64,000 nucleotides of DNA, taken from the NCBI GenBank assembly GCA_965602675.1, contig CBFCZO010000004.1, forward strand, positions 6,512 to 70,511, read 5' to 3'. Below are positions 7,859-35,159 of the stretch, piece by piece (positions within the stretch are counted from its first letter, which is position 1; each line of letters begins with the position of its first letter). Made by a program: the position numbers and the translations under genes. Source of the DNA: an uncultured bacterium (GTDB lineage: Bacteria; Acidobacteriota; DATKUA01). The notes under the pieces were generated by a model, which saw only the letters and a program-made list of their open reading frames with translations, had not been told where the DNA came from and ran no database searches.

Positions 7859-7883
7859 CGGATAACTACTCTGTATTGAACTA

Positions 7884-16829: not shown

Positions 16830-17840
16830 ATGCCTTCGTTAGCTAAGATCTGGCGGGAAGGATTCCGTCGCATCGGTTGCGGCAGGAGATGCCGGGAGAT
16901 CAACTCGGGCATCGAACACCTGCAGAAAGAGCGCCCAAAGCTGCTGATCTCGTTAGCCAAAACTGCCTGGGAAACCGGCGCATTCGGCACGGACTTCAGT
17001 ACCTCCGCAGCGGATCTGTTGAAGACTGGTCACGACCTGAAAACGCTCAAAGAATCGCTTGAAGCCAGCCGTAAGGCTACGGAAGAGCTGGATGCCGAGT
17101 TCGCCCGGGCCGACGGCGAATCCTCAATCCGGATCCGGGATGCCGCGCAACCTTTTCGTGAAGCGAAGGGAGCTTACGACAGGCTGAACAAACAGCTTGA
17201 AGGGCTGGAGTACGAAAAGACGCGCCTCGAGCACGCTCTCCCTCTCCTGCACGAAAGCTCCGAAAAGCTCGAAGCCAGGATCGCCGAGATCGAGACCTCG
17301 AGTTCGACGGACGGAAGGCTGGCGCGATTGCGCAGCGACCTTAAAAGACGCCGGCGCGATGCCATCGACTCCGAAAGCCGCATGAAGCAGATCGAAGAGG
17401 TGGAATTGCCTGCAATCCGGCCGGAGGTGGAATCGGTCGCCCGCTCAACCGAGGCATTGAGGAGCAAACTGGAAGAGTTGGAAACGGAAGAATCAACGCA
17501 TACATCCAGCCTGAAGGAAAAGCTCGATGAGGCGCGCCGGAGAAAGAATGCTCAGGAACGGGAGGCGCGGGCGCTCGAGGATTCGATCCTGCCTCTGCTT
17601 TTTCAGTTGGGCGAAGAGCTTAACGGCAGGCGCGTGGAACACGAAGCGTTGAGCGAACACTACAACAATCTTGACGCGCAGTTGGAGGAGTTGAAAAAGC
17701 TGCACACAGCGCTCGGGATCGCAAAGGCCGACCTTAACGAACTGGATACCGCCGCAGTACGATTCTTCTGGGGCCTGGCGATCGGCGCAGGTGCTTTGCT
17801 GATGGTGGTTGTGATTATCACGGTTGCCTTTCTAACCTGA
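16830..17840 (+). CDS. Tail-anchored coiled-coil protein (336 aa): long heptad-rich region with a single C-terminal TM helix.
   Basis: E/R/K/L-rich sequence with strong coiled-coil periodicity. The terminal hydrophobic segment is FFWGLAIGAGALLMVVVIITVAFLT. No known domain. Confidence 0.6.
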   Translation: MPSLAKIWREGFRRIGCGRRCREINSGIEHLQKERPKLLISLAKTAWETGAFGTDFSTSAADLLKTGHDLKTLKESLEASRKATEELDAEFARADGESSIRIRDAAQPFREAKGAYDRLNKQLEGLEYEKTRLEHALPLLHESSEKLEARIAEIETSSSTDGRLARLRSDLKRRRRDAIDSESRMKQIEEVELPAIRPEVESVARSTEALRSKLEELETEESTHTSSLKEKLDEARRRKNAQEREARALEDSILPLLFQLGEELNGRRVEHEALSEHYNNLDAQLEELKKLHTALGIAKADLNELDTAAVRFFWGLAIGAGALLMVVVIITVAFLT

Positions 17841-17870
17841 TAGCTGCAACCGGGCAGACGGGATAAGGCG

Positions 17871-18896
17871 ATGCCGCAGATGCATGACATCTTCAGGGAC
17901 GGAGCGGAATTCATCCGGCGCAACTTCAGGCGGACGATCCTCACAGCCCGCCTGAGCGACGAACGTCAGAGGCTGGAGAGGTTCCTCAGCGATCTGGGCC
18001 GCAAGGCGTGGGAGCTTGGCATTTCAACGTGCGAATCCGTTCCCACGGGCAAGGAACTGGGAAAGATACAGAAAAAAATCGACAAGCTGGAACAGCGGAC
18101 GGACTCCGACACGGGGAACCTGGACGCGCAGATCAGGGAAATCGAGGGCAAGGCACTCGAGGAGGAAAAGCGCTTTCGCGACATCGACACCCGTCGCGAA
18201 GGCGCAATCGGCCAGAAAACTCAGCGGGCGAAAACCATATCGGAGATCAGAAAGAAGCTACAGGAACTCGCTGACAAGCGGGAGCGCCTGAAAGATGATT
18301 TGAAGTTCTGCTCCGACAAACACCGCCAGCTCGAATCGAACGGCCCCAAGGCATCCGGCGCGGGGGAGAGCGCCGCCGAGCTGCTGGCTACGGAAGAAGC
18401 GCTGAATAATCAGTCGAAGGAGGTCGCCGGGCAGATCAAGGCCCTGCAGAACAGGTTGCGATACAACGAGCGGGCGATGTCTCCCCTTGAGCAGACCATC
18501 GCTGCAATCCTGGAGGATCTCGAGGCAAGCCGGGCACAACGCCGGCTGCTCCAGGACCAAATGAAAGAGTTACGTGCCAGGCTTCACGAGCTTCGCAACA
18601 ATGCCGCACACCAGAGAAATCCTCTGCTCAAAGAACGCCGGGCGCTTTATGGCGGCCTCGGAATAGAATTACTGAGCAATCGCTCCGATGAGCCCGAACT
18701 GGGACCGCTGTTCAGCGCGGCAGACCTGTCGGTGTCCACAGTGAGAGGTCTTGAGAAAGACATCGAGGCCGAAAAGCAGCTCATCGGACTGCTCGATCAG
18801 ACTGCGGTAACCATGTTCATCGGTATTCTTTTCGGAGCCGGATTGTTGATGTTCATGGTGTTTGCGCTGATAATTACTTTAATCCTCGTTTTGTGA
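17871..18896 (+). CDS. Paralogous tail-anchored coiled-coil protein (341 aa).
   Basis: Same architecture as 16830-17840 (N-terminal ...LGRKAWELG..., coiled coil, C-terminal TM FIGILFGAGLLMFMVFALIITLILVL). The two genes are 31 nt apart. Confidence 0.6.
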   Translation: MPQMHDIFRDGAEFIRRNFRRTILTARLSDERQRLERFLSDLGRKAWELGISTCESVPTGKELGKIQKKIDKLEQRTDSDTGNLDAQIREIEGKALEEEKRFRDIDTRREGAIGQKTQRAKTISEIRKKLQELADKRERLKDDLKFCSDKHRQLESNGPKASGAGESAAELLATEEALNNQSKEVAGQIKALQNRLRYNERAMSPLEQTIAAILEDLEASRAQRRLLQDQMKELRARLHELRNNAAHQRNPLLKERRALYGGLGIELLSNRSDEPELGPLFSAADLSVSTVRGLEKDIEAEKQLIGLLDQTAVTMFIGILFGAGLLMFMVFALIITLILVL

Positions 18897-19102: not shown

Positions 19103-19603
19103 ATGCCCGCCCTCGACCTTTTTCTGTATGAGGAAGATCACATCGCGCTCAAGCAGGCAGTGGAGCGACTCTGCCGCGAGAGCGAGGCAAAAGCGGTCTT
19201 CCTCATCGACAAAAACGGTCAGCAGCTCATGGCCGCCGGGGACTACGGCGACATAGACACCGTCTCGCTGGCGACGCTGGCTGCGGGCAACGTCGCGGCG
19301 ACCGACGGCCTGGCAAGGCTGCTCGGCGAACAGGGCTTCACTATTCTTTTCCACGAGGGCGAGCGGGATAACATACACATTTCGATCGTCGGAGACCTGG
19401 CTATTCTTGTTGTTATCTTCGACGATAGGACCTCGGTAGGGCTCGTGCGCCTGCGCGTGAAGCGCTCTACCGACGCCCTGGAAAGCGTGCTGGTGCAGGC
19501 TGTGAAGCGCCAGCAGGCCGTCAAGGAGCAGGCGGGCGAGGCGGAGAAAAAATCCGACTTGCAGGAAATCACGGATGAAGAGATAGAGAACCTCTTCAGA
19601 TGA
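19103..19603 (+). CDS. mglB: MglB, the roadblock/LC7 GTPase-activating protein for MglA.
   Basis: Closely alignable to the Myxococcus xanthus MglB sequence as recalled from memory (KAVFLIDKNGQQL, DTVSLATLAAGNVAA, VLVVIFDDRTSVGLVRLRVK, acidic tail ending DEEIENLF). Confidence 0.9.
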   Translation: MPALDLFLYEEDHIALKQAVERLCRESEAKAVFLIDKNGQQLMAAGDYGDIDTVSLATLAAGNVAATDGLARLLGEQGFTILFHEGERDNIHISIVGDLAILVVIFDDRTSVGLVRLRVKRSTDALESVLVQAVKRQQAVKEQAGEAEKKSDLQEITDEEIENLFR

Positions 19604-19652
19604 GCGGGGCGTTAACATTCGCCGATGAGATGGCGGGGGGATCGCAGGGCAA

Positions 19653-20243
19653 GTGACTTACGTTAATTATTCCGCGAGGGAGATCAACGTCAAGATCGTT
19701 TATTACGGTCCCGGACTCGGCGGCAAGACCACCAACCTGCAGTTCATCTACAACAGCTCGGGCGCGAAGCAGCAGGGAAAGCTGATCAGCCTGGCCACCG
19801 AGACCGACAGGACGCTTTTCTTCGACTTCATGCCCCTCGATCTGGGAAACATCCGCGGCTTCCGCACCCGCCTCCATCTCTACACCGTCCCGGGGCAGGT
19901 CTTCTACAACGCCAGCCGCAAGCTGATCCTCAAGGGCGTTGACGGCATCGTGCAGGTGGCCGACAGCCAGGTCGAGCGACTCGACGCGAACATCGAGAGT
20001 ATAAACAACCTGCAGGACAACCTGCGCGAGCACGGCTACGACCTGGAGACCATCCCCTACGTTCTGCAGCTCAATAAGCGGGATCTCAAGAATGTCGTCT
20101 CGAGCGAGGAACTCGCCAAGACACTTCATGTCAAAAACGAACCGGTTTTGGAAGCCGTCGCCACCGAAGGCAAGGGAGTGTTTCAGAGCCTCAAGGCCGT
20201 CTCGAAATTGATCCTCATCGACCTGCGACAGAGGCTTGTCTGA
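19653..20243 (+). CDS. mglA: MglA, Ras-like small GTPase.
   Basis: GTG start. EINVKIVYYGPGLGGKTTNL P-loop, LISLATETDRTLFFDF switch region, HLYTVPGQVFY and LQLNKRDL. Roughly 70% identity by eye to the M. xanthus MglA sequence as recalled from memory. Confidence 0.95.
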   Translation: MTYVNYSAREINVKIVYYGPGLGGKTTNLQFIYNSSGAKQQGKLISLATETDRTLFFDFMPLDLGNIRGFRTRLHLYTVPGQVFYNASRKLILKGVDGIVQVADSQVERLDANIESINNLQDNLREHGYDLETIPYVLQLNKRDLKNVVSSEELAKTLHVKNEPVLEAVATEGKGVFQSLKAVSKLILIDLRQRLV

Positions 20244-20254
20244 TCCCCGCCCCG

Positions 20255-20572
20255 CTATTTTGACTTCAGACTCGCTACGTACTTCTTCTTCAGCCGGTAG
20301 ACGAATACCAGCAGCTCGGCTACCACCTCGTAGAGGGCGGGATCGATCTCTTCGCCAAGATCCATCTTCGAAAGGATCGACACAAGATCGGCGTCCTCGG
20401 TGATCGGGATGTCGTGCTCCTTGGCCAGGGCGATGATCTTCTCGGCTATTCTCCCCTCGCCCTTGGCTATCAGGCGGGGCGCGCCGTCTTTCTCGGGGGT
20501 GAAGCGCAGTGCGGCCGCCCTCAGGCGTTCCCTCTCTCCCCGCTTTCGCTTGCCCTTATCCGCCATCGTCAC
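20255..20572 (-). CDS. Stand-alone FlhB C-terminal domain paralog (FlhB_C / YlqH-like, EscU/YscU/HrcU family).
   Basis: 105 aa. Central APRLIAKGEGRIAEKIIALAKEHDIPITEDADLV matches the conserved FlhB cytoplasmic domain around the NPTH region, but here lacks the autocleavage NPTH. Its start overlaps the stop of the upstream FliK-like gene. Confidence 0.8.
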   Translation of the reverse strand: MTMADKGKRKRGERERLRAAALRFTPEKDGAPRLIAKGEGRIAEKIIALAKEHDIPITEDADLVSILSKMDLGEEIDPALYEVVAELLVFVYRLKKKYVASLKSK

Positions 20573-21993
20573 ACCTGCAGGTTGACAAGGCCGTCACCGC
20601 CGGAGAGGGTTTCAGCGTCGAAGCGGTGAAAATCGTCGACCTTTCGAACATCCGCCACAGCCTTCAGCAGCGCCAGCCTGAAGCCTCTCGACTCCAGCTG
20701 CTCGGCGAACTCCTGCTCCATCCCGGACGCCATCTCAGCCACATCGCGCTTCTCGGCAAAGAGGTTCACATACAGCGTTTTATCTTGCAGCAGCGCATCG
20801 ATCCTTATCTTGCCCAGTGTCTCGAGATTCAGCAGCAGCACCGCCGTGAGGCTCCCCCCCGTCTTCCCCTTGCCGGTTCGCGAAAGGTACTGCTTGATCT
20901 GCACCTCCGTCATCTCGCCCAGAATGCTCACCGGAAACAGGATGTGCTGGTAGAGGCCGCGGTCCCGCAAATGAACATTGAGCAACTGCAGGTTCTCCAG
21001 GCGCTCGCGAAGCTCCGAGGCCGTTTTACCCAATTGCTCACGGGCGGTATCTGTGGCCAGCCTCCGCGAAAGCTGCTCGAAAAGTTCTTCAACCGCGCGT
21101 TGAAACGGCGCAGCCTCGCGCCCCTGGAGCGTCTGGGCCAGAACGCGGAGACGACCGGCGAAACTCTCGAGTGTCTCCTGGGCAGGCCGGCCCTCGGCGC
21201 TGCGCAATGTTGTCTCCAACGCCTGCCTTAGCTCTTCGGTCAGCTGAGTCAGCTCAGCCGCCCTTTCGCCGAGAACGGGCGACCAGCGGTTTTGAAAGGC
21301 CTGCAGCAGTGTAGAAACCTCGCGAATGATATTCGTTATATTTCTCTGGCCCAGCGCCGCGATAAATCTGCCCAGGAGGCCCTTCAATCCCTCGGCCTCC
21401 GCGCCGGGCCGCGAAAATTGCTCACCGGCCACTCCTTCCCTCAGGGCGGCCTCCAGACCTAATCCCAATGAGAGCAGGATCGTCCGCAACTCTGAGCCGA
21501 GATTCTCCGTTTCTCCCCCTACCTGCGGCAAAACAAGCTGCTGCGCAAGCCTGCTGAGCAGCTCTTCGGGAACCGACAGGCCGCGGCCCTCGAGAATGCT
21601 GCTGACCTGGCGCGCCAGGCTTGCCGCCGATTCAGCAGTGTCCGCTCCCACGAACAGCGAGCGCAGCGCCGACGCCAGGTTCTTCTCCGCGGCCGTCCGC
21701 TCCGCGAGCACCTCGAGCTGCAGGTTGGCTCCCAGCTCGCTGATTCTCACCGTGATCATCTGCCCGGGGCGGAGTGGCGGAGCGCCCTCGGCCAGGAAGC
21801 GCTCCCCGCCCATCTCGATCAGAGCTTTGTCGCCAGAGAGCAACTCGATCACCCGGGCGCCCAACACCTGGCCCCGGACAAATGTCGCTATCTGCGCCTC
21901 CTGCCCCTGAGCGCCGCCCCCCCCTTCCTGCTGCGTCTGCAGCTGCGTCGCTACCGAGGCCACAATCTGGCCGATAATCAGGGAATCTCCCAT
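20569..21993 (-). CDS. Putative flagellar hook-length control protein (FliK-like). Gln/Gly-rich N-terminus, Ala/Leu/Glu-rich helical middle, globular C-terminus.
   Basis: Low-complexity helical protein of 474 aa. Transcribed immediately before the FlhB_C paralog, which is the same FliK plus FlhB_C partner logic as B. subtilis ylqG-ylqH. No direct sequence match can be verified by eye. Confidence 0.45.
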   Translation of the reverse strand: MGDSLIIGQIVASVATQLQTQQEGGGGAQGQEAQIATFVRGQVLGARVIELLSGDKALIEMGGERFLAEGAPPLRPGQMITVRISELGANLQLEVLAERTAAEKNLASALRSLFVGADTAESAASLARQVSSILEGRGLSVPEELLSRLAQQLVLPQVGGETENLGSELRTILLSLGLGLEAALREGVAGEQFSRPGAEAEGLKGLLGRFIAALGQRNITNIIREVSTLLQAFQNRWSPVLGERAAELTQLTEELRQALETTLRSAEGRPAQETLESFAGRLRVLAQTLQGREAAPFQRAVEELFEQLSRRLATDTAREQLGKTASELRERLENLQLLNVHLRDRGLYQHILFPVSILGEMTEVQIKQYLSRTGKGKTGGSLTAVLLLNLETLGKIRIDALLQDKTLYVNLFAEKRDVAEMASGMEQEFAEQLESRGFRLALLKAVADVRKVDDFHRFDAETLSGGDGLVNLQV

Positions 21994-22015
21994 CGTACTA
22001 CCCGGTGAATATGAA

Positions 22016-22423
22016 TCAGCTTTTGGCGCTGAACCTCTCCAGGTCGAGGATCAGCTCCACTTCCCCGCAGGGAATATTAAGGTCGCGCGCAATCGTATCC
22101 GCGCTCAGCCCTTGGCGGGCCAGAAACAAAATATCTTCCTTCACTTTCTGCGGATCGAGGCGCACCCCGCCGTCCTTGGCGCGTTCTCGCGTGGTCTCGC
22201 GATCGGTCGTGGCGCTCAGCCTCTCGGAAAGCACGCGCTGGCGGTGGGCGAGCCCGTGAAACTGCTCCAGCACCCTGCGCTGCGCCGCGCCGATCTGCTC
22301 CAGCTCGTGTAAAAGACCCTCCTGGCGCTCCGACAGCGAGCGAACGCGCCACAACAGCGCCAGCGCCAGCGCGGCGGAACCCGCCGCCAGTATCATGGAG
22401 ATTACAATCAGGAAGATCTGCAT
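22016..22423 (-). CDS. Small N-terminally membrane-anchored protein with a coiled coil and a C-terminal HTH-like motif (135 aa).
   Basis: TM IFLIVISMILAAGSAALALALLW, then a helical region, then LSADTIARDLNIPCGEVELIL. Embedded in the flagellar operon. Confidence 0.4.
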   Translation of the reverse strand: MQIFLIVISMILAAGSAALALALLWRVRSLSERQEGLLHELEQIGAAQRRVLEQFHGLAHRQRVLSERLSATTDRETTRERAKDGGVRLDPQKVKEDILFLARQGLSADTIARDLNIPCGEVELILDLERFSAKS

Positions 22424-22433
22424 TTAGAACCGA

Positions 22434-23327
22434 TCAGCTGGCAAACATCGCATTGACGAAGCTTTCCACCTTCTCAACCTCCTCGTCGAGAGAAGCGGAA
22501 AAGCGATCGAAATCGAGGGTCTCCAGGAGATGGTTGTGCTCGCTCAGCTTCTGCCAGGCTTCGTCGGAGCGCATCTCGACAACCACCTCCGGCTCACCGC
22601 TGATTCCGATACCATGCTTGCGGCAGAGCAATGCCGCCAGCCGCACAACACACGTCACCTCGCCGTACTCGGTGGCCTGCCTGGGATTCTCGTTGAAGGC
22701 GATTACCTCCTCGAGCAGGCGCGGCAGACGCCAGCGCACTGCTAGGCGCTGACCGACATCCGTGTGAGTAAAACCCAAAACCTCTTCCTCCGCCTCGCTT
22801 AGAGGTATCCCCCGCTCGTGCGCATTGTGGATCGCCTCCTCGAAGAGCAGAGGACGGTAACTCGCCAGGACTATCTTGCCGATGTCGTGCACCAGCCCCG
22901 CCAGAAAGGCTTCCTGGTAGAATTGGTAATCGAGCAGGGAGGAGAGAGTGCGGCTGATGTTGCCCGTGGCCACGGAGAACTGCCAGAAACCCTCGAAGGG
23001 GAAGCGCTCGATCTTGGAGTGCCGCCCGAAGGCGGTGATGATCGACGTCCCATAAACAAGATTCTTGGTTGCATCCAGACCAAGCACCACGATCGCCTGC
23101 CGGATCGAGTTTATCTCGCGGAAGAAGGAATAATACGCGGAGTTGACGATGCGCAGCAGCCGGGTGGAGATCACCGGGTCGGTGGAAATCGCCTCCTCGA
23201 CCTTGGCGATCGAGATGTTGGGGTCGCTGGTAAGCTCGATGATCTTCTTGATCACCTCGGGCAGCGTGGAAAGGTCCCGCACCCCCCTGATGAACTTGTC
23301 GACCTTCTTGAGGCGTTCCTCTTCCAT
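22434..23327 (-). CDS. HDOD domain protein.
   Basis: LSTLPEVIKKIIELTSDPNISIAKVEEAISTDPVISTRLLRIVNSAYY and later HDIGKIVL (degenerate HD motif), typical of HDOD. Confidence 0.85.
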   Translation of the reverse strand: MEEERLKKVDKFIRGVRDLSTLPEVIKKIIELTSDPNISIAKVEEAISTDPVISTRLLRIVNSAYYSFFREINSIRQAIVVLGLDATKNLVYGTSIITAFGRHSKIERFPFEGFWQFSVATGNISRTLSSLLDYQFYQEAFLAGLVHDIGKIVLASYRPLLFEEAIHNAHERGIPLSEAEEEVLGFTHTDVGQRLAVRWRLPRLLEEVIAFNENPRQATEYGEVTCVVRLAALLCRKHGIGISGEPEVVVEMRSDEAWQKLSEHNHLLETLDFDRFSASLDEEVEKVESFVNAMFAS

Positions 23328-23354
23328 CGCTTCTCCCGTGAAAGCGACATCGGC

Positions 23355-24206
23355 TCAGAATTCGAAAATATCCCTGTCCTCATCCAACAGGTCCGAGACG
23401 TACTGAACCATCTCATCCAGCTTGTCCCCGCCAAGCTCCAGAATCTCGACAGCCTCCGTCTCTTTCAGTTCCTGGGCCGGCCTCCTTATCGGACCGATAC
23501 CCAGCTTATTGGACATAGCGTTGGCGAAAGACACCACCGCCGTGAGGTACTGGTTGTGCTCGGCGTAAAAAGGCGTGTGGTGATGCAGCACAGCCTCTTC
23601 AAGCTCCGGAGAGAAATTCCATTTGTGCAGCACCAACGCCCCCACCTGTGTGTGGTCGAAGCCGAGGACTTCCTGCTCGTACGGAATGAAGTCGCTACCT
23701 GTATTATAGACCTCTTCGATGATGGTCTGGTATTGCTGACTGAAATTCACGTTGAGAACACTCTTGCCGAGGTCATGCAGCAGCGCGGCGATAAAAGCCT
23801 TCTCAACGTCTGCCACGCCCAGTATCTCCGCGCTCCTGCGGGCGATCACTGCGCTCGCGAGCGAATGCTCCCACAACAGCTTGGTGCTGAACATCTGCGT
23901 GCTCGGCCCCCTGGAGTAGATCGACTTCGACGACGCCGCCAGCACTATCGACCTGATCGTCGAGAATCCCAGAATCACGATGGCATGGGAAAGCGTTGTG
24001 ATGTCGCGGGAGACCCCGAACATGGCGGAGTTGGCAATCTTCAGCACCTTCACTGTGAGAGCCTGGTCGCGCGAGATCATATCCTGCAGCTGGTTCGCAG
24101 ACGTCGAGGGGTCACCGATCATGCCCATGATCCTGACCGCGACAATCGGCATCGCGGGCAAATCGCCCACGCGCGCAATCAGCGTTTCCAGCTCGTCCTG
24201 GCTCAT
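23355..24206 (-). CDS. HDOD domain protein, second tandem copy.
   Basis: LPAMPIVAVRIMGMIGDPSTSANQLQDMISRDQALTVKVLKIANSAMFG and LHDLGKSVL. Paralogous to 22434-23327. Confidence 0.85.
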   Translation of the reverse strand: MSQDELETLIARVGDLPAMPIVAVRIMGMIGDPSTSANQLQDMISRDQALTVKVLKIANSAMFGVSRDITTLSHAIVILGFSTIRSIVLAASSKSIYSRGPSTQMFSTKLLWEHSLASAVIARRSAEILGVADVEKAFIAALLHDLGKSVLNVNFSQQYQTIIEEVYNTGSDFIPYEQEVLGFDHTQVGALVLHKWNFSPELEEAVLHHHTPFYAEHNQYLTAVVSFANAMSNKLGIGPIRRPAQELKETEAVEILELGGDKLDEMVQYVSDLLDEDRDIFEF

Positions 24207-24270
24207 CCCATCCCCTCAGATTTCTGAAGATCTCAAGGCTAACAAGGCGATTGCGCCCTGGATTACAAGA

Positions 24271-25236
24271 CTAACCGAGAGATTGAATTCGGTCCGACTT
24301 ACTTTGCACTTCCGTCACGCGAAAGGCGAAATTACCCTCCACAACAACCACCTCGCCCGACGCGATCATTTTATTGTTCACCAGCAGTTCCACCGGCTCA
24401 TCCACCGACTTGTTGAGCTCGATTATCGATCCCGGCCCAAGCCTGACGATCTCCTGGAGGGTCATCTCCGCCTTGCCCAGCCTGATTACTATCGGCAACT
24501 CAAGATCGAGAATCAGCCCGACATTGCCAGGCCCCGCCTCCGCTTCCGCGGCTTCAGGCTGCTGGGCAGCAGCCTTTTGAGCCTCCTGCTCAGCCTCGGC
24601 GGCCGTCTCGGCCATCGCCGCCGCCACTGGATCCTCCTCCACTGCGACGGCAGCGGGGGCCGCCTCGAACGCGCCGGCCTCAGCCTCCACCAGATCCTCC
24701 CTCAGCGAGGAAAAGGTCTCCTCGGGAATGCAGAGCGCCAACGTACCGGCTTCCTCGCCGCCGAACTTCAGCGACATGGCCACGCGCAACTGCTTCTCGT
24801 CGCCAAGCAGGAGGTTGAGATCGATATTGGGCTCAAGTGCGTGGACCTCTACCTGCGAGAAGCCCACCGGGCCCTCGTAACGCTCCCTCATTCCGGTTGC
24901 CGAAACGCCGAGTAACTGGTTGATCACCTCTTTAAGGGCATCCTTCGACTCCTCGTTCATCGGACGATCGTCCGCGCCCTCGCCCCCGAGCATCATGTCC
25001 ACTAATATGCTGACCAGCTTTGCCGCTATCACGAAGTACATCGACCCGCTGGGCCCTTCCGTAAAGGTTGTTGTGATCAGAACCATCGACTCGGGATAGG
25101 CGATCGGAGACCACTCTTCGATCTCGTCGACGGCGACCTCCACCTCTTTCGGTAGAAGCATCGGCAGCACCGATGACGTGCTCTCCTGAAACAGCCCACC
25201 TACCTCCGTCAGCAACTCTTTGTCTTTATCTTCCAT
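24271..25236 (-). CDS. fliY: Flagellar motor switch protein FliY (CheC-like N-terminal domain plus C-terminal FliN/SpoA domain).
   Basis: C-terminal LELPIVIRLGKAEMTLQEIVRLGPGSIIELNKSVDEPVELLVNNKMIASGEVVVVEGNFAFRVTEV is a FliN domain. The N-terminal 190 aa are CheC/FliY-like. An Ala/Glu-rich linker joins them. Confidence 0.85.
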   Translation of the reverse strand: MEDKDKELLTEVGGLFQESTSSVLPMLLPKEVEVAVDEIEEWSPIAYPESMVLITTTFTEGPSGSMYFVIAAKLVSILVDMMLGGEGADDRPMNEESKDALKEVINQLLGVSATGMRERYEGPVGFSQVEVHALEPNIDLNLLLGDEKQLRVAMSLKFGGEEAGTLALCIPEETFSSLREDLVEAEAGAFEAAPAAVAVEEDPVAAAMAETAAEAEQEAQKAAAQQPEAAEAEAGPGNVGLILDLELPIVIRLGKAEMTLQEIVRLGPGSIIELNKSVDEPVELLVNNKMIASGEVVVVEGNFAFRVTEVQSKSDRIQSLG

Positions 25237-25258
25237 CTAAACCTCCCCGCGCCGCGGG

Positions 25259-26272
25259 CTATTCGCCGCGCTCGGAGCCGGAGATCCTCTCCTTAACCAC
25301 GAAGCAGCGCTGGCCGGCCTTGTTCACGACCGCTCCGGTAAGCTTGGGTATCCCGTTGACTGAGAGAGAAGCATTGCTCTTTTGATCGTACTCCAGGATC
25401 AGAAGATCACCCCTCCTGAGGTTCACCAGATCGTTGACGCTGACCATCGTGCCGGGGATCTCGGCGCTGACATCCTGCTTCGCATCCAGCAGGTGGTGCT
25501 TCATGCGAATAATGTCGTCGGGATCAATGCTGCGAGGCCCTCCGGAGGAGTACTCTTGGTCGAACTTGCCGGTGATCGGCTCGATTAGCGATGTCGGCAC
25601 GCAGAAGTTCATCAATCCCGAGACTTCGCCGATCTTGACTTCAAACACCACCAGCACCACCACCTCGTTTGGTGCCACGATCTGCACAAGCTGGGGGCTC
25701 GTCTCACGCGCCTCCACCTTCATCTCCACCTCGATCGTCTGGAGCCAGATATCCATCAGGTCTTCCAGCGCCAGCTTGATCACCCCTTCGATGATGTTCT
25801 GCTCGATCTCCGTTATGCTGCGGTCAATCTCCAGGGGCATGCCGGGGCCGCCAAGCAGCTTGTCAATCATCGGAAAAGCCAGTGACGGGCTCAGCTCCAG
25901 CGCGGCATTGCCCTCCAGCGGCTTCATGCTGATCGCATTGAACGACGTGGGATCGGGTAGCGAGAGCAGGAACTCGGCATACGAAAGCTGCTCGACGCTG
26001 ACCAGGTTCACCTCAGTTATCGTGCGGAGGTAGGCAGACAGCGAGGCGCTGAAGTTGCGGGCAAAGCGGTCGTGCATGAAGTGCAGCGAGCGCAGCTGCT
26101 CCTTACTGATGCGCTCCGGGCGGCGGAAGTTGTAAATGATGAATTTTCTCGACGGCGCTGCCCGCTCGGGAGCGTGGACGTCCTCCTCGACTTCCGGCAG
26201 CGCACCTTCATCGCCGTCGGCTACAGCCTCCAATAAGGCATCAACTTCTTCCTGCGTTAATATCTTTGCCAT
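25259..26272 (-). CDS. fliM: Flagellar motor switch protein FliM.
   Basis: MAKILTQEEVDALL (CheY-P binding LSQxEIDALL-type N-terminus) and a FliM middle domain. C-terminal SpoA-like segment. Confidence 0.92.
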   Translation of the reverse strand: MAKILTQEEVDALLEAVADGDEGALPEVEEDVHAPERAAPSRKFIIYNFRRPERISKEQLRSLHFMHDRFARNFSASLSAYLRTITEVNLVSVEQLSYAEFLLSLPDPTSFNAISMKPLEGNAALELSPSLAFPMIDKLLGGPGMPLEIDRSITEIEQNIIEGVIKLALEDLMDIWLQTIEVEMKVEARETSPQLVQIVAPNEVVVLVVFEVKIGEVSGLMNFCVPTSLIEPITGKFDQEYSSGGPRSIDPDDIIRMKHHLLDAKQDVSAEIPGTMVSVNDLVNLRRGDLLILEYDQKSNASLSVNGIPKLTGAVVNKAGQRCFVVKERISGSERGE

Positions 26273-26276
26273 GGCT

Positions 26277-27002
26277 CTACTTCCCGCTCAAATCGGCCTC
26301 CATCCGGCCCCGCAGCCTCAGCACAGCCTTCGAGTGCAACTGGCTTACGCGTGACTCGGTTATCCCCAGCACCGCGCCGACCTCCTTCATCGTCAGGCCC
26401 TCGTAATAATACAGGCTCAACACAAGCCTCTCTTTCTCGGGCAGCTTGTCGATGCCCGAGGCCAGCAGCCTCTGCAGCTCAAGCTTCTCCATGATGAAAG
26501 AAGGCGAGTTTTCCTTGCGATCCGGTATATATTCTACCAGATTCTCTTCGCCATCCTTGGTGACCGCGTCCATCGAACCGATCTGAATCCCACGCAAATT
26601 GTCAAGCAGCGAATGGAACGCCTTCAAGCCGATCTGCAGCTCGGTCGCAACCTCCTCGTCGGTCGCGCTGCGTCCCAGCTCGCTCTCCAGCTTTCTATAA
26701 GCCCGCTCAAGCTCGCGCTGCCGCCGCCTATAAGAGCGCGGAACCCAGTCGAGCTCGCGCAACCCGTCGAGAATCGCACCCCGGATGCGAAGCTCGGCGT
26801 AAGTCTTGAACTTGACGCCGCGGCTCTTGTCGAACTTATCGACGGCATCCATTAACCCGATGATACCATAGTTGATCAGGTCATCGAGCTCGACGTGGCT
26901 GGGCAGGCGGTTGAGGATGCGCATCGCGATGTACTTGACCAGCGGCAGATAGTTGACGATCTGCTGCTCGCGTTGCTGCTCGAGATATTGCTCGCCCAAC
27001 AA
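26277..27002 (-). CDS. fliA: Flagellar sigma factor sigma-28 (FliA/WhiG).
   Basis: Sigma-70 region 2 (YLPLVKYIAMRILNRLPSHVELDDLINYGIIGLMDAVDKFD), region 3 and region 4 HTH (LTMKEVGAVLGITESRVSQLH). Confidence 0.9.
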   Translation of the reverse strand: MLGEQYLEQQREQQIVNYLPLVKYIAMRILNRLPSHVELDDLINYGIIGLMDAVDKFDKSRGVKFKTYAELRIRGAILDGLRELDWVPRSYRRRQRELERAYRKLESELGRSATDEEVATELQIGLKAFHSLLDNLRGIQIGSMDAVTKDGEENLVEYIPDRKENSPSFIMEKLELQRLLASGIDKLPEKERLVLSLYYYEGLTMKEVGAVLGITESRVSQLHSKAVLRLRGRMEADLSGK

Positions 27003-27013
27003 CTACCCACACC

Positions 27014-27901
27014 TCAACCGGCGGCGGAGCCGCCCAGCACATTCATCAAACGCTCCCAAAAGCTCGGAGACTTGCTGGAGACGCCGGAACTTGAAACCAG
27101 CTTGCGCGCCAGCGCGGAGACGCAGCGGCTCGCGGGGCTGTTCGGATACTGAATGATAAATGGGCGCTGGCGGCGTACCGCTTTGCGAACGCTGTCATCT
27201 TCCATCACATACCCGAAATACTCTATCTTCACACGCTGGAAGCGATGCAGCGTCGTGGAGATTCTCTCGTAAACGCCCAGCGCCTCCTCCTCGTCCCGCA
27301 CCGAGTTCACCACCAGCTTTACGCGCGCATTACGCTGCTCGCTGAGCAGATGCTTGATCAGCGCATATGAATCGACGAACGCAGGCGGCTCGGGGTTGGT
27401 TATCACGATCACATAAGTGGCGGAGCGCAGGATGTTGATCACGTTGTCGGAGATACCGGCCGCCGTGTCGATCAACAGGTGCTGGAAATGCTTCTCCATC
27501 ACCTGCAGCGCGTTGAACAGCTTGTTCTGCTGCTCCGACGACAACTGAGCGAGATCCTGCATCCCCGAAGCGGCGGGCACTACCTTGATCCCCCCAGGTC
27601 CCTCCACGATGATTTCGCCGATACCGCGCTCGCCGCTGAGAACGTGCTCGATCGTGAAGCGCGGGCTGAACCCGAGCAGCACGTCGATGTTGGCCAGGGC
27701 GTAATCGGCGTCGATCACCGCCACCCGCCTGCCAAGCAGAGAAAGCGCTATCGCGAGATTCGCTGTTACGTTGGTCTTGCCCACCCCGCCTTTGCCACCG
27801 GTGATGGCGATCGAAACCGCCCGGCCCAAGCCGCCGGCTTCCCGAGTCGACTCCTGCTCCACCATCTGACGGAGCCGCGATGCCTGGTCCACGATGCTCA
27901 T
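27014..27901 (-). CDS. flhG: MinD/ParA-type flagellar number regulator FlhG (FleN).
   Basis: Deviant Walker A GGKGGVGKT. The N-terminal DQASRLRQM activator-helix region is typical of FlhG. Sits between flhF and fliA. Confidence 0.88.
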   Translation of the reverse strand: MSIVDQASRLRQMVEQESTREAGGLGRAVSIAITGGKGGVGKTNVTANLAIALSLLGRRVAVIDADYALANIDVLLGFSPRFTIEHVLSGERGIGEIIVEGPGGIKVVPAASGMQDLAQLSSEQQNKLFNALQVMEKHFQHLLIDTAAGISDNVINILRSATYVIVITNPEPPAFVDSYALIKHLLSEQRNARVKLVVNSVRDEEEALGVYERISTTLHRFQRVKIEYFGYVMEDDSVRKAVRRQRPFIIQYPNSPASRCVSALARKLVSSSGVSSKSPSFWERLMNVLGGSAAG

Positions 27902-27917: not shown

Positions 27918-29132
27918 TCAGGCCGATCCCAGAAGCATTCTGGCCAGCTTGGTTGGGTTGGCGGCCTCGATGTCGTCGGGCACGTTCTGGCCCGTGGTGA
28001 AGTAGGCTATCGGTAGCTTGGTCCGCACCGTCTCGTTGACCACCGGCCCGTACGTCGTCGTCTCATCGAGCTTGGTGAATAACAGCTTTTTAGGGCCGAT
28101 AGGGCAGAAGCGGTCGGTGATCTCACACAGATCCCGGTTCTTCGTGGTCGCCGAAAGCACAAGCATTACCTCGACCTCGGGATCGTCGGCAAAGTAAGAC
28201 TTGAGGTCCTTTACCTGCTCGTCGTCCGCCTGGCTGCGGCCGGCCGTGTCGATCAGGATGAGCGATGCGTCGTGGTTGTCGGCGATCGCCTTGCGCATCT
28301 CCTCGGGGCTGTAACTGACAAACAGCGGTATGTTCATGATGCGCGCGTAAGTCTTGAGCTGCTCGACCGCGGCGATCCTGTATGTATCGATGGTAATCAG
28401 GCACACCTTTCGCTTCATCTGAAGGCTGCAGCGGGCGGCGAGCTTGGCGATGGTGGTTGTCTTGCCCACCCCGGTCGGACCGATGAAGGCAAGCACCGAG
28501 GGGCGGCCGCCGTTGAGGGCGATCGGCTTGCCGGCTGGCATGACGTCAGTAATTAGCCCCACCAGGCGCTCCCGGGCAAGGGATATATCTGCCCGCTCCT
28601 CCTCCTGCAGAAGGCCGTTCAACGCCTCAATCAGGTTGTAGCTGATGCTCTCCTCCAGTTCGTTGCCCACCAGGTCGCGGTAAAGGTGCAGCAGGGTCTC
28701 GTCGAAATCAAGTTCCTCGGTCAGGCCCGCGCGGCGAGAGAGCACGTTGAACATACGCTTCAGATCGCGCATCTCCTCGCGCAGCGGTTCGATGTCGGAG
28801 CTCACATGGTTGCGGCGCATCTCGTCGACAAGCGAACGGATGGCAAACAACTCCTGCTTCAAAGGCTCGATGCTCTGGCTGAGAAGCATCCGGTTCTTGA
28901 CGATCTGTTCCTCGATATCGCCGGCGGTGTAAGCCCTCTCCGCCTTCTCCGTCCTCTCGGCCCTCTTCACTGGTGGGGCATCGTCGGCGGCGGCGGTGAC
29001 CTCCACGAACCGGCGCCCCAACCGGCCGCTCATCTCCCGGGTGGATATTATCAAAGCGTTCTCACCCATCTCGCGGCGAATCTGCGCCAACGCATCCTTG
29101 ATCGTCGAAGCCGTATACTTCTTTACCCGCAT
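27918..29132 (-). CDS. flhF: Flagellar SRP-like GTPase FlhF.
   Basis: N-terminal B-domain, then NG domain with GPTGVGKTTTIAKLAA, DTAGR and TKLDET motifs. Confidence 0.9.
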   Translation of the reverse strand: MRVKKYTASTIKDALAQIRREMGENALIISTREMSGRLGRRFVEVTAAADDAPPVKRAERTEKAERAYTAGDIEEQIVKNRMLLSQSIEPLKQELFAIRSLVDEMRRNHVSSDIEPLREEMRDLKRMFNVLSRRAGLTEELDFDETLLHLYRDLVGNELEESISYNLIEALNGLLQEEERADISLARERLVGLITDVMPAGKPIALNGGRPSVLAFIGPTGVGKTTTIAKLAARCSLQMKRKVCLITIDTYRIAAVEQLKTYARIMNIPLFVSYSPEEMRKAIADNHDASLILIDTAGRSQADDEQVKDLKSYFADDPEVEVMLVLSATTKNRDLCEITDRFCPIGPKKLLFTKLDETTTYGPVVNETVRTKLPIAYFTTGQNVPDDIEAANPTKLARMLLGSA

Positions 29133-29278
29133 CTTTTTTTCCCGTTGCGGCCGATTTCGCTGAAACTACGGGGTACCTGCAAGTACTTCATTATAACAGA
29201 TTTTTCCCCTTCTTACATCTCTGTGAAGGCTCTCAAAACGACTCTATGGGGCGTGATTTGCGAGTCCCTCGAGGGGCC

Positions 29279-30355
29279 TCATGCGGGGACCTTGTTGCGA
29301 AGTTTGTAGACGTAGGCCAGCACCTCTGCGACCGCCTTGTAGAGATCGGGCGGGACAAGATCGCCGACCTCGCAGGTGCGGTAAAGGGCTTGAGCCAAAG
29401 CCTGATTCTCGACCAGAGGAACCTTGTTCTCCTCCGCGATTTCCCTGATGCGCTCAGCCAGATGACCCCTTCCCCTGGCGATCACCTCTGGGGCAGGCTT
29501 TGCCTCAGCATTGTAGGCCAGCGCCACAGCAAAGTGAGTCGGATTGGTTATCACAACGTCGGCGCGAGGAACCTCGGCCATCATCCGGCGGCGAGCCATC
29601 TGGTACTGGAGGGTCCTGATCCGGCGCTTGATCATCGGATCACCCTCGGTCATCTTCATCTCGTCCTTCACCTCCCGGCGCGTCATCTTGAGGTCCTTTG
29701 AGAAGCGGTGTTGCGTCCAGGCGAGATCTATTATCGCCACGATGATGAACAGCAACAGGATCTTGAACAACGCCGCGAAGATGAAATTGGCCGCATACTC
29801 GACAGCCTGCGGCAACGGCGCCATCATCAACCCCGGAAGGTGCGGAAGCTCCGCCATCAGCGTATCCCACGTCATCCAAACGACTATCAGAACGATCAGC
29901 AGCGTACGCAGGAAATTAACCGCGGCCGATGGGCTCATCAGCATCCGCTTCAGGCCCTCGACCGGATTGAACTTGTTGGGCTTGAACTCGAACGGCTTGA
30001 AAGATATATTCCAGCCGCCCTGCATCCACGTCGAGGCGAATATCGAGGTGATGAGCAAGGCCAGAAACAGCGGCCCCACTATCAACGCCAGGCTTCCGGC
30101 TATTTCCCAGAATAGCGTCGTTACCGAGGCTTCAGAGATCTGAGTCGTGCCGGCCGCGGCCAGCAGCCTCGAGGCGAGCCTGCCCAGCGCAACTGTTCCC
30201 AGCCCGCCAAACAGAAAAATAATCAGCAGCGCAACGGCGAAGGTCATGATGTTGGGAAATTCCCTGCTGCGCGGCAGCTTGCCCTCTTCCCGAGATTTCC
30301 GCCTCTTGCGAGGAGTCGCGGGTATCGTCTTTTCGGCTTTGTCTTCAGTGCCCAA
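29279..30355 (-). CDS. flhB: Flagellar type III export protein FlhB.
   Basis: 358 aa. N-terminal EDKAEKTIPATPRKRRKSREEGKLPRSREF, 4 TM helices, and a C-terminal domain with the NPTHFAVAL autocleavage site. Confidence 0.92.
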   Translation of the reverse strand: MGTEDKAEKTIPATPRKRRKSREEGKLPRSREFPNIMTFAVALLIIFLFGGLGTVALGRLASRLLAAAGTTQISEASVTTLFWEIAGSLALIVGPLFLALLITSIFASTWMQGGWNISFKPFEFKPNKFNPVEGLKRMLMSPSAAVNFLRTLLIVLIVVWMTWDTLMAELPHLPGLMMAPLPQAVEYAANFIFAALFKILLLFIIVAIIDLAWTQHRFSKDLKMTRREVKDEMKMTEGDPMIKRRIRTLQYQMARRRMMAEVPRADVVITNPTHFAVALAYNAEAKPAPEVIARGRGHLAERIREIAEENKVPLVENQALAQALYRTCEVGDLVPPDLYKAVAEVLAYVYKLRNKVPA

Positions 30356-32250: not shown

Positions 32251-32736
32251 TCAAGACTGCTGACCTTCCTTATCGCCCGGCTTTTCGCCCCTAAACCGTT
32301 GGAGCAACCGGGCGAATCCGCCCTCCGTAGTGATTCCGCTCTTCTCGATATACGGCTTTATCTCGTCGGCATCAAGAGTGGAAAGCAGGGAAATCTCTCC
32401 CGAGCTGATACCGATCAGGTAATAGCGCTCCCCAACCCTTATCACAGAAATGAACCGGCGGTCGCCGAGCGGCACCGACGCCACCACCTGCAGCAGCCCC
32501 GAGCTCCCGAAAGAAAATCTTCTGCCGATTGTCAACTTCAGCAACCAGGTGATTAGTAGAATGAGGGCGATGACTATTGCCAGAGCCACAACCAGGTTGA
32601 TTACGTAAGGCCAGATATCGAAATCATTGGTTGCCAAAGGCTTGGCCGCCTGGCCGTCCTGGCCATCTGTCTGCTGACCGGCGTGAGCGAGAGCATTTAT
32701 CACGGCTATCAGGAAGGCCGGTCGGCAGCAGCTCAC
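32251..32736 (-). CDS. fliO: Flagellar export protein FliO (FliZ-like), single TM.
   Basis: Small bitopic protein between fliN and fliP with TM INLVVALAIVIALILLITWLL. The true start is probably internal to the 161-aa ORF. Confidence 0.6.
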   Translation of the reverse strand: MSCCRPAFLIAVINALAHAGQQTDGQDGQAAKPLATNDFDIWPYVINLVVALAIVIALILLITWLLKLTIGRRFSFGSSGLLQVVASVPLGDRRFISVIRVGERYYLIGISSGEISLLSTLDADEIKPYIEKSGITTEGGFARLLQRFRGEKPGDKEGQQS

Positions 32737-33029
32737 CTCTCCCTCCTCCCGGGCTCCACGATATCCGTTATGCGGATGGCGAAACGGTCGTCTATCACCG
32801 TGACATCTCCGCGCGCGACAAGCTTCCCGTTGGCGAGCACATCGAAGCTCTCGCCCGCGCTCTTGGATAACTCAATAATCGCCCCGCGGTCGAGCCGCAG
32901 CAGATCGTTGATCGTCATCGTCGTCTTGCCGATGAGGATCGTGACCTCGTAGGGGATGTCGGCAAAGTCCTGCAGCTCGCCCAGGTGAAACTGCTTCTTC
33001 GGAGTCTCGCTTTCCGATTCCGTCGCCAT
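32733..33029 (-). CDS. fliN: Flagellar motor switch protein FliN (short form).
   Basis: 98 aa. EVTILIGKTTMTINDLLRLDRGAIIELSKSAGESFDVLANGKLVARGDVTVIDDRFAIRITDIV is a SpoA/FliN domain. Confidence 0.85.
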   Translation of the reverse strand: MATESESETPKKQFHLGELQDFADIPYEVTILIGKTTMTINDLLRLDRGAIIELSKSAGESFDVLANGKLVARGDVTVIDDRFAIRITDIVEPGRRER

Positions 33030-34382: not shown

Positions 34383-35159
34383 TCACCTCATCTCGCCCGA
34401 GCGGTCGAGCCGCGGGTGCTTAATTATCACTTCCACGCGCCGGTTGAGCGTCATGTTTTCGGGTGTGTCGTTTGCGACCAAAGGACGGTACTCCCCGGCG
34501 CCGCTGGCAGACAGTCTGCCCATGCTGACTCCTCGAGAATTCAGATATCTGAGCACGCTCATCGCGCGCGCCTGCGAGAGCTCCCAGTTGTTGAGCCACG
34601 TTCCCCCGGCCGGGAGCTGGCTGGTGTCGCTGTGACCCTCGATTGCAAGCTCGTTGCGAAAGGGCCCGACTATCGCCACCAGGCGGTCGAGAAAACGTTG
34701 GCCCTGAGGCGTGAGCTGGTCATCTCCGGAAGCAAAAGAAAGCTCTTCACCCAGGGTCACGACCAATCCGCGAGGCGTAACAACGATCCCGATGTTACCC
34801 TCCAGCCCCACCTGGCGCGCATAGCGCTGAAGGGCGAGAAACTCCTCGTAATGTGACGTTACGACCTCGTACAGTAGCTCGTCACCCGGCTTGGACGCCT
34901 CTGCGGTCAGGTCCTGACCCGTGCTTCCCGACTCGAAGACGCTGAACATTCTCGCAGCCTTCTCGAAGATGCCCACGAACTCCAGCTGCACCGAGGTAAG
35001 CGCCATTTTAACCCGCTCCACGTCGAAGCTCGAATAGGCAGTCAGCAGGATGAAGAAAGCCAGGATAATGATTGAGAGGCTGGTGAAAAGAGAGACATGA
35101 ACGGGCAGCTTCGGGCGCTGCTTGATGATAATCGGCTTCGATTCGTTGTTTCCAACCAT
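34383..35159 (-). CDS. motB: MotB stator subunit (OmpA-like C-terminal domain).
   Basis: TM LFTSLSIIILAFFILLTAY and OmpA_C motif LAIEGHSDT...NWELSQARAMSVLRYL. Immediately follows motA. Confidence 0.8.
   Translation of the reverse strand: MVGNNESKPIIIKQRPKLPVHVSLFTSLSIIILAFFILLTAYSSFDVERVKMALTSVQLEFVGIFEKAARMFSVFESGSTGQDLTAEASKPGDELLYEVVTSHYEEFLALQRYARQVGLEGNIGIVVTPRGLVVTLGEELSFASGDDQLTPQGQRFLDRLVAIVGPFRNELAIEGHSDTSQLPAGGTWLNNWELSQARAMSVLRYLNSRGVSMGRLSASGAGEYRPLVANDTPENMTLNRRVEVIIKHPRLDRSGEMR

Follow-up and report, generated by a model that had tools for sequence, protein, structure and literature searches.

The distal end of a flagellar operon in an uncultured member of the Acidobacteriota carries three genes of named accessory families (FipA/FlrD, FliK2/YlqG and FlhX/YlqH) behind a tandem pair of HDOD genes. 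The five genes lie at positions 20255 to 24206 of a 64-kb stretch of contig CBFCZO010000004.1, which we call the window. Judging from homology, the last two genes, fliK2 and flhX, likely encode a second pair of proteins that resembles FliK's C-terminal domain (FliK_C) and the cytoplasmic C-terminal domain of the export gate protein FlhB (FlhB_C). The system is of a familiar kind, and the pairing of fliK2 with flhX has been published before. The first-pass annotation of the region had proposed a separate substrate-specificity switch or an FlhB_C mimic. A second pair of this kind is indeed likely, but it already has names: fliK2-flhX and ylqG-ylqH. In the direction of transcription the five genes are:

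23355-24206, minus strand: HDOD-A, 283 amino acids, HDOD domain only (Pfam HDOD 202.5 bits, HD 52 bits)
22434-23327, minus strand: HDOD-B, 297 amino acids, HDOD domain only (Pfam HDOD 196.6 bits, HD 15.6 bits)
22016-22423, minus strand: FipA/FlrD-like protein, 135 amino acids, made up of a transmembrane helix at the N-terminus, a helical region and, at the C-terminus, a DUF2802/DUF6115 motif
20569-21993, minus strand: FliK2/YlqG-family protein, 474 amino acids, with an OB-fold (oligonucleotide/oligosaccharide-binding fold), a helical bundle, a type III secretion substrate specificity switch (T3S4) domain and a C-terminal tail
20255-20572, minus strand: FlhX/YlqH, 105 amino acids, a stand-alone C-terminal half of FlhB_C (FlhB_CC) without NPTH, without the N-terminal segment FlhB_CN and without a membrane domain

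All five reading frames are co-directional and tightly spaced, as the first-pass annotation had them. Their order recurs on seven further independent, diverged contigs, on which FlhX identity goes down to about 59%. It follows that the five open reading frames (ORFs) are real conserved genes and not chance ORFs. Across the resulting eight diverged acidobacterial-type contigs the order fliM-fliY-HDOD-(HDOD)-fipA-like-fliK2-flhX is held. Only one of the seven relatives (L094) deviates, having lost HDOD-B and kept HDOD-A. When genome contigs were scanned with a profile from the FliK2 alignment, a single locus was found, in a metagenome-assembled genome of the Acidobacteriota that is the closest named relative.

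The evidence for the identity of FlhX comes from where its homology to FlhB begins. Its Pfam match to Bac_export_2 (64.2 bits) is limited to profile positions 262-335 of 335. The best-scoring family is TIGR00789, matched over model positions 3-83 of 84 with 97.0 bits, below the trusted cut-off of 117.35. Compared with the full-length FlhB of the window (30355-29279), FlhX is 39% identical to residues 276-355. The full-length protein contains ...VVITNPTHFAVALAY, with the NPTHFA intact as had been pointed out before, and the alignment begins just past the NPTH motif, so FlhX does not have one. The same boundary is found in a 30-sequence alignment, in which all 29 stand-alone homologues (90-119 amino acids) begin a few residues past the position between NP and TH. 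FlhX also aligns to chain B, residues 5-85, of 3B1S, the crystal structure of the cleaved FlhB_C of Aquifex (E = 1.3e-16). By these alignments FlhX is not the whole cytoplasmic domain but the FlhB_CC half that cleavage leaves; the CN strand and the linker are missing. It had been described as essentially the FlhB cytoplasmic C-terminal domain without NPTH; the restriction to FlhB_C and the missing motif hold, but FlhB_CN is not part of it. Translation could start at GTG 20572, where a GTGA overlaps with the fliK2 stop, or at ATG 20566, 2 nt past that stop (103 amino acids, as on the JGI contig).

FlhX A31, P32, A85 and L88 align with A286, P287, A341 and L344 of Salmonella FlhB, which we take to form the hydrophobic pocket for the gate-recognition motif found in subunits of the rod and the hook. 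These residue numbers reportedly go back to Evans et al. in 2013. The published account that we consulted confirms the existence of a hydrophobic pocket for this motif on FlhB_C, not the residues that form it.

The name FlhX was given by Pallen in 2005. The protein has been studied in H. pylori as HP1575, where it is reported to substitute partly for FlhB function. P. putida PP_4329 has been described as resembling processed FlhB. With these proteins, with Bacillus YlqH and with the TIGR00789 family ('FlhB-like flagellar biosynthesis protein') the window protein shares its short length, its restriction to FlhB_CC and its start just past the NPTH site. As in those cases, the genome also has a full-length FlhB, and the gene lies directly downstream of, and overlaps, a gene for a FliK_C-domain protein. 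The setting differs. In the window flhX closes the main flhB-flhF-fliA-fliM operon, whereas in P. putida it belongs to a separate FliA-dependent operon of two genes, and in Bacillus the flhX-like gene is unlinked to the flagellar cluster. No switch subunit of type III secretion is known to us to have a free copy other than FlhX.

The 474-residue protein encoded just upstream is, by profile matches and predicted structure, a member of the FliK2/YlqG family and not a ruler-type FliK. Its FliK-like C-terminus had been recognized in the first-pass annotation. Pfam Flg_hook matches residues 378-441 with 27.2 bits, below the curated cut-off of 29.8; orthologues on related contigs carry unflagged Flg_hook matches. 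The protein ends in a tail motif, Phi-[DN]-Phi-x-[A/V/I/T]-COOH, which reads LVNLQV in the window and is matched by 90 of 149 representatives. E. coli FliK ends likewise (...GVDIFA). It has been shown that FliK_C binds FlhB_C directly, and that the FliK_C core and FliK's final five residues are needed for switching.

Relatives of FliK2 are numerous. A search of the whole library with a hidden Markov model (HMM) gave 593 representative proteins, many of which match both the N-terminal region and the C-terminal domain. An iterated HMM of the family matches P. aeruginosa FliK2 (the "FliK" upstream of flhX) over N- and C-terminal regions with E = 4e-34 and B. velezensis YlqG with E = 4.5e-19. It gives no match to E. 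coli FliK, and a profile-profile comparison with E. coli FliK is weak (35% probability over 60 columns). The window protein shares with FliK2 of Pseudomonas (P. putida PP_4328 and the P. aeruginosa orthologue) and with YlqG the C-terminal Flg_hook/T3S4 domain, the Phi-[DN]-Phi-x-[AV]-COOH tail, a conserved N-terminal region that is not that of FliK, and a gene position just upstream of flhX. It differs from the named members in being only about 20% identical to them, the link being made by the iterated HMM. In P. putida the gene was named fliK2, fliK2-flhX was found to be a FliA-dependent operon, and the function was stated to be unknown. The YlqG orthologue on B. velezensis NZ_CP083716.1 (L092, 2259-3962) is annotated as "glycosyl transferase". 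It has no glycosyltransferase match in Pfam, and the label is probably a misannotation. The 807-kb NZ_CP083716.1 record itself is labelled as a plasmid and looks like a chromosome fragment.

The predicted structure also sets FliK2 apart from canonical FliK. An AlphaFold2 model built from 65 sequences has a predicted local distance difference test score (pLDDT) of 85.4 and a predicted template modelling score (pTM) of 0.76; we used it in place of an earlier model from 8 sequences, which was poor (pLDDT 56). It consists of an OB-fold (residues ~43-96), a helical bundle (101-344), an alpha/beta T3S4 domain (349-447) and a disordered C-terminal tail. In Foldseek the C-terminal domain finds the switch domain of PscP (5CUK) and FliK_C (2RRL) with probabilities of 0.99-1.00 and a root-mean-square deviation of 2.4 Å over about 65 residues. 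The N-terminal domain finds OB-folds of the IF1 type with probabilities of 0.99-1.00. Whole-chain E-values are not significant (best 0.03) because the domains are small relative to the query, so only the domain-level values are informative. The N-terminal two-thirds (340 residues) are thus predicted to be folded, unlike a disordered ruler, which speaks against the earlier description of the protein as hook-length-ruler-like. Its composition (Leu 16.5, Ala 11.0, Glu 10.3, Gly 9.9, Arg 8.2 and Gln 7.4%) bears out only part of the label Gln/Ala/Leu-rich. Leucine and alanine lead, but glutamine comes sixth, and Leu/Ala/Glu-rich would be more accurate. Proline, threonine, serine and glutamine together make up 37% of E. 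coli FliK and 21% of the window protein. What FliK2 has in common with canonical FliK and the injectisome rulers PscP and YscP is the fold of the switch domain and the tail motif. It differs from them in its predicted fold, which leaves no disordered ruler region, and in not being encoded beside flgD/flgE.

How tightly fliK2 and flhX are coupled can be seen across metagenomes. We seeded a scan with the closer subset of 16 FlhX sequences, since the 29-sequence alignment was too diverse, and obtained 80 loci, a sample biased to relatives. Ten of these are full-length FlhB and nine have no upstream sequence. In 54 of the remaining 61 stand-alone flhX loci, an ORF of the fliK2 family lies directly upstream, ending about -3 to +152 nt from the FlhX domain; one further locus (L018) has a fliK2-family ORF about 390 nt upstream. 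The two genes share a 4-nt overlap of start and stop in the window, in P. aeruginosa and in Bacillus (B. velezensis), which are only distantly related to each other. By this layout fliK2 and flhX are a translationally coupled pair, and the ylqG/ylqH-like pairing suggested earlier is borne out both by these counts and by the HMM link to YlqG. The pair also occurs outside flagellar clusters: beside recBCD (L005-7), beside sucCD in Bacillus, and in a neighbourhood of cyclic di-GMP (c-di-GMP) signalling genes (L009). We also considered natural FliK2-FlhX fusions, suggested by long ORFs such as those of L040 (535 amino acids) and L066 (598 amino acids). We rejected them as artefacts because the ORF start coordinates put fliK2 and flhX in different frames; in this GC-rich DNA the long ORFs are out-of-frame extensions of flhX across fliK2.

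The 135-residue protein upstream of fliK2 had been called a membrane-anchored protein with a helix-turn-helix-like motif. The membrane segment stands: residues ~3-25 (IFLIVISMILAAGSAALALALLW) are hydrophobic and are followed by a helical, heptad-like region. The C-terminal part, however, is FipA/FlrD-like, a resemblance that had gone unrecognized. The protein's score of 34.9 bits on DUF6115 (PF19610) exceeds the curated cut-off of 27; on DUF2802 (PF10975) it scores 23.0 bits, short of the 33.5 required there. Both Pfam families are matched in 15 of 22 homologues. The iterated HMM of the family finds the DUF2802 protein of P. aeruginosa (E = 2e-10), for which the DUF2802 score is 81.5 bits. FipA begins with a transmembrane helix, followed by a coiled region and a DUF2802 domain; its gene lies downstream of the flhF-flhG operon. 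The protein binds FlhF through a conserved Gly and Leu (G110 and L129 in V. parahaemolyticus, G104 and L123 in P. putida), with a conserved Glu at +16 (E126 in V. parahaemolyticus). In the window protein G105, E121 and L124 have the same +16/+19 spacing and are conserved in the aligned homologues. The genomic context also agrees. FlhF and FlhG are both encoded, and the fipA-like gene lies downstream of them in the order flhF-flhG-fliA-fliM-fliY-HDOD-HDOD-fipA-like.

By sequence the 135-residue protein hence resembles the FipA/FlrD family of FlhF-interacting polar determinants. FipA of V. parahaemolyticus, P. putida (PP_4331) and S. putrefaciens, which is FlrD of V. cholerae, has about the same length (135 amino acids), the same topology and the same Gly/Glu/Leu motif. 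The window copy differs in coming from an Acidobacteriota-related genome and in scoring better on DUF6115 than on DUF2802. The family has been described as γ-proteobacterial and as absent from Bacillus, ε- and α-proteobacteria and spirochaetes.

The fipA-like gene, fliK2 and flhX form a conserved module. In four unrelated metagenomic loci (L018, L027, L028 and L037) the order DUF6115-like gene, fliK2, flhX follows flhF-flhG-fliA, and in three others (L022, L031 and L034) it is partly seen. The arrangement is different in P. aeruginosa, where the DUF2802 gene is 4.5 kb away from fliK2-flhX. There it is convergent with the pair, whereas in the window the genes are co-directional. In the four loci with the full order, which are non-acidobacterial, the stretch between fliA and the DUF6115-like gene encodes a FliL-like membrane protein, in some cases also a histidine-kinase-like protein, and a protein of about 104 amino acids. 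The last of these has no Pfam match and ends in ...IDIKV or ...IDIRV, resembling the tail motif of FliK2. A search of the literature on ylqH and on DUF6115 returned nothing useful.

The two remaining genes encode the HDOD proteins. As had been described, they are paralogues of about 290 residues with no other domain. Both cover HDOD profile positions 1-196 of 196, and they are 30% identical. The closest structure for both is 3HC1 of G. sulfurreducens (E = 2.5e-30 for HDOD-A), and C. jejuni Cj0248 (1VQR) is also matched. In 3HC1 five His and one Asp coordinate two iron ions. When ligand positions are taken from pairwise alignments to 3HC1, rather than from a structure, HDOD-A keeps all six candidate di-metal ligands (WEH, HD, DH, HHH). 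HDOD-B has lost three His (WQF for WEH and AFN for HHH). Each pattern is conserved in the respective orthologues. HDOD-A is present in all eight acidobacterial-type contigs; the site of the HDOD-B loss on L094 is at 7865-8001. Among the 80 metagenomic flhX loci no tandem HDOD arrangement was found outside acidobacterial-type contigs. From these patterns, we regard the pair as lineage-specific and its two members as not equivalent. A related contig (L095, 5365-6318) has an extra HD_5/HD gene, HD-GYP-like, directly after flhX.

Other HDOD proteins have been tied to motility. PSPTO_4229 of P. syringae affects swimming, and proteins such as PSPTO_4229 and SadB can be motility regulators or adaptors without proven c-di-GMP binding. 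For the pair in the window, the tie to c-di-GMP that the first-pass annotation drew for HDOD domains is putative. HDOD-A and HDOD-B are like the stand-alone proteins 3HC1, 1VQR and PSPTO_4229 in being full-length HDODs of about 280-300 residues with no other domain. SadB (YbaK plus HDOD) is like HDOD-B in being without most ligands. What sets the window apart from known HDODs is that two diverged paralogues stand in tandem within a flagellar operon, with fliY on one side and the fipA-like gene on the other.

The five genes are the distal end of a flagellar operon of about 15.7 kb (motA ... flhB-flhF-flhG-fliA-fliM-fliY-tail). Its upstream part runs motA, OmpA-like, motB, fliL, fliN, fliO, fliP, fliQ, fliR, flhB, flhF, flhG, fliA, fliM, fliY. 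Genes that bear on the tail are:

29279-30355, minus strand: full-length FlhB, NPTH intact; presumed docking partner of FlhX (through FlhB_CN and the transmembrane part)
27918-29132, minus strand: FlhF, a GTPase of the signal recognition particle type (PF00448, SRP54); putative partner of the FipA-like protein
27014-27901, minus strand: flhG, ParA match; next after flhF
26277-27002, minus strand: fliA, sigma-70 regions 2-4; next after flhG
24271-25236, minus strand: fliY, 321 amino acids, FliM/CheX-like N-terminal part and FliN C-terminal domain; closes the run of core flagellar genes ahead of the tail

From fliY down the tail the intergenic gaps are 64, 27, 10, 22 and -4 nt. In positions 19500-27200, sigma-70-like and terminator-like matches are at chance level (2 against 1.9 expected, and 7 against 6.0), and a scan for sigma-28-like promoters found no site in the tail region. 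A sigma-28-like sequence, TAAAGCTTTACAAAAAAAGCCGTTTA, lies at 36044-36019 on the minus strand, 117 nt upstream of motA, and near gene starts the operon strand has no other match of this kind. We infer that the tail is co-transcribed with the flagellar genes. Neither hook genes nor a canonical fliK were found in the 64-kb window.

How could these proteins work together? We favour the following explanation. FliK2 and FlhX would form a cytoplasmic complex that mirrors the contact between FliK_C and FlhB_C. FlhX would then dock on FlhB_CN at the export gate in place of FlhB_CC, as a "spare part", a notion that follows the H. pylori genetics. FliK2 would be the dedicated partner of FlhX, neither secreted nor a ruler, that delivers FlhX or sets the state of the switch. 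The pair would thus serve as an auxiliary or backup switch of substrate specificity, not as a decoy. The FipA-like protein would anchor and activate FlhF at the membrane through G105, E121 and L124 and so license flagellum assembly. The HDOD pair would be a regulatory add-on, with a metal or ligand pocket in HDOD-A and a degenerate, adaptor-like copy in HDOD-B. Together, the two would probably tune motor or assembly output to a small molecule. We hold this explanation as a whole, the backup switch, the FipA-like protein with FlhF and the HDOD input, with moderate confidence.

Several points weigh against it. The contact between FliK2 and FlhX is putative. FlhX is without the beta-strand that FlhB_CN contributes, and it might fold alone, with FlhB_CN or with FliK2. 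The phenotype of the H. pylori flhX null mutant has been reported as mild. In P. putida fliK2-flhX is a late operon, which fits a role at the hook stage poorly. HDOD-B is missing from one related contig (L094). The scores of FlhX on TIGR00789, of FliK2 on Flg_hook and of the FipA-like protein on DUF2802 all fall short of their cut-offs. The search for a canonical FliK covered the 64-kb window. For co-transcription, finally, the evidence is spacing and synteny, with no promoter or terminator signals above chance.

One could also argue, as the first-pass annotation did, that FlhX is a decoy. As a free buffer it would sequester FliK_C-type domains, or rod and hook substrates through its pocket, from FlhB, and so delay or damp export or the switch, with FliK2 as antagonist or titrator. 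FlhX has neither a membrane part nor a CN part and could not gate on its own, the putative substrate-pocket positions are kept, and its partner has a T3S4 domain. All of this would suit a decoy. Yet in the H. pylori genetics, as reported, FlhX supports FlhB function, substituting for it in part, instead of inhibiting it. Strict translational coupling to a T3S4 protein also fits a stoichiometric complex better than a free titrator. We consider a decoy unlikely. A hook-length FliK, that is, a secreted ruler with FlhX as an unrelated neighbour, is less probable still. The T3S4 domain and the FliK-like tail would fit, many databases call members of the family "FliK", and there is no other fliK in the window. 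But a compact OB-fold and helical bundle is predicted for the N-terminal 340 residues, the composition is rich in Leu, Ala, Glu and Arg instead of Pro, Thr, Ser and Gln, and the family HMM finds FliK2 and YlqG while it misses E. coli FliK. Pseudomonas and Bacillus have a canonical fliK besides this one. In 54 of 61 loci the gene forms a pair with flhX, and it stands apart from flgD/flgE; P. putida fliK2 lies in a cluster said to encode all structural and assembly proteins.

Least probable of the rivals, and in our view improbable, is that the tail has no flagellar function. The HDOD genes, perhaps together with others, would then serve general signalling or housekeeping and merely abut the operon or be transcribed separately. 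The pair does occur beside recBCD and sucCD, and the 64-nt gap past fliY could hold a promoter. Against this, the gene order is held across the eight diverged contigs, homology or experiment ties three of the five families to the flagellum, and terminator and promoter signals do not exceed chance.

Our backup-switch explanation can be taken one step further, at the price of becoming quite unlikely in this extended form. The fipA-like gene, fliK2 and flhX might be one functional unit that ties the FlhF-dependent placing of a new flagellum to the export switch. FipA and FlhF would nucleate the gate, and FliK2-FlhX would supply an exchangeable, pre-set FlhB_CC that replaces or resets the autocleaved one. 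This would be a second switch, independent of hook length, found from Bacillus to Pseudomonas to Acidobacteriota. In the window, a heterodimer of an active and a degenerate HDOD would add control by a small molecule.

The neighbourhood of the tail holds further genes of interest. On the plus strand, an MglB-like Roadblock protein (166 amino acids) and an MglA-like small GTPase (196 amino acids) are encoded at 19103-20243 and converge on flhX, with 11 nt between the stops. They are preceded at 16830-18896 (plus strand) by genes for two coiled-coil paralogues whose C-termini are hydrophobic tails. Every related contig (L001-4, L008 and L094-96) has the MglA/MglB pair at the same position, which points to a polarity module with a link to the flagellar operon. 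Within the operon, flhA is absent between flhB and flhF. There is only a 146-nt gap (29133-29278), and the same is true of L008 and L094, so flhA must be elsewhere in these genomes. The C-ring set has three members: a short FliN (98 amino acids, 32733-33029, minus strand), FliM (337 amino acids) and FliY, the latter two spanning 24271-26272 on the minus strand. Between motA (35927-35166) and motB (34379-33618), a 258-residue OmpA-domain protein without a MotB plug is encoded at 34383-35159 (minus strand). Possibly it is an additional component that associates with the stator or binds peptidoglycan.

What does the tail add to the biology of these families? Pairs of fliK2 and flhX (ylqG and ylqH) are found in Bacillus, Pseudomonas and many uncultured lineages. 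To what has been published our analysis adds a FliK2 that is predicted to be folded and not a ruler, a quantified coupling of fliK2 to flhX, and a pair of one intact and one degenerate HDOD. With its active-like and its degenerate member next to fliM and fliY, the HDOD pair is a candidate motility regulator. The window copy and the related loci extend FipA-like proteins beyond the γ-proteobacteria. In several lineages outside this group the fliK2-flhX pair, a FipA-like gene and flhF-flhG-fliA stand together in a single string, which hints at a functional link between them.

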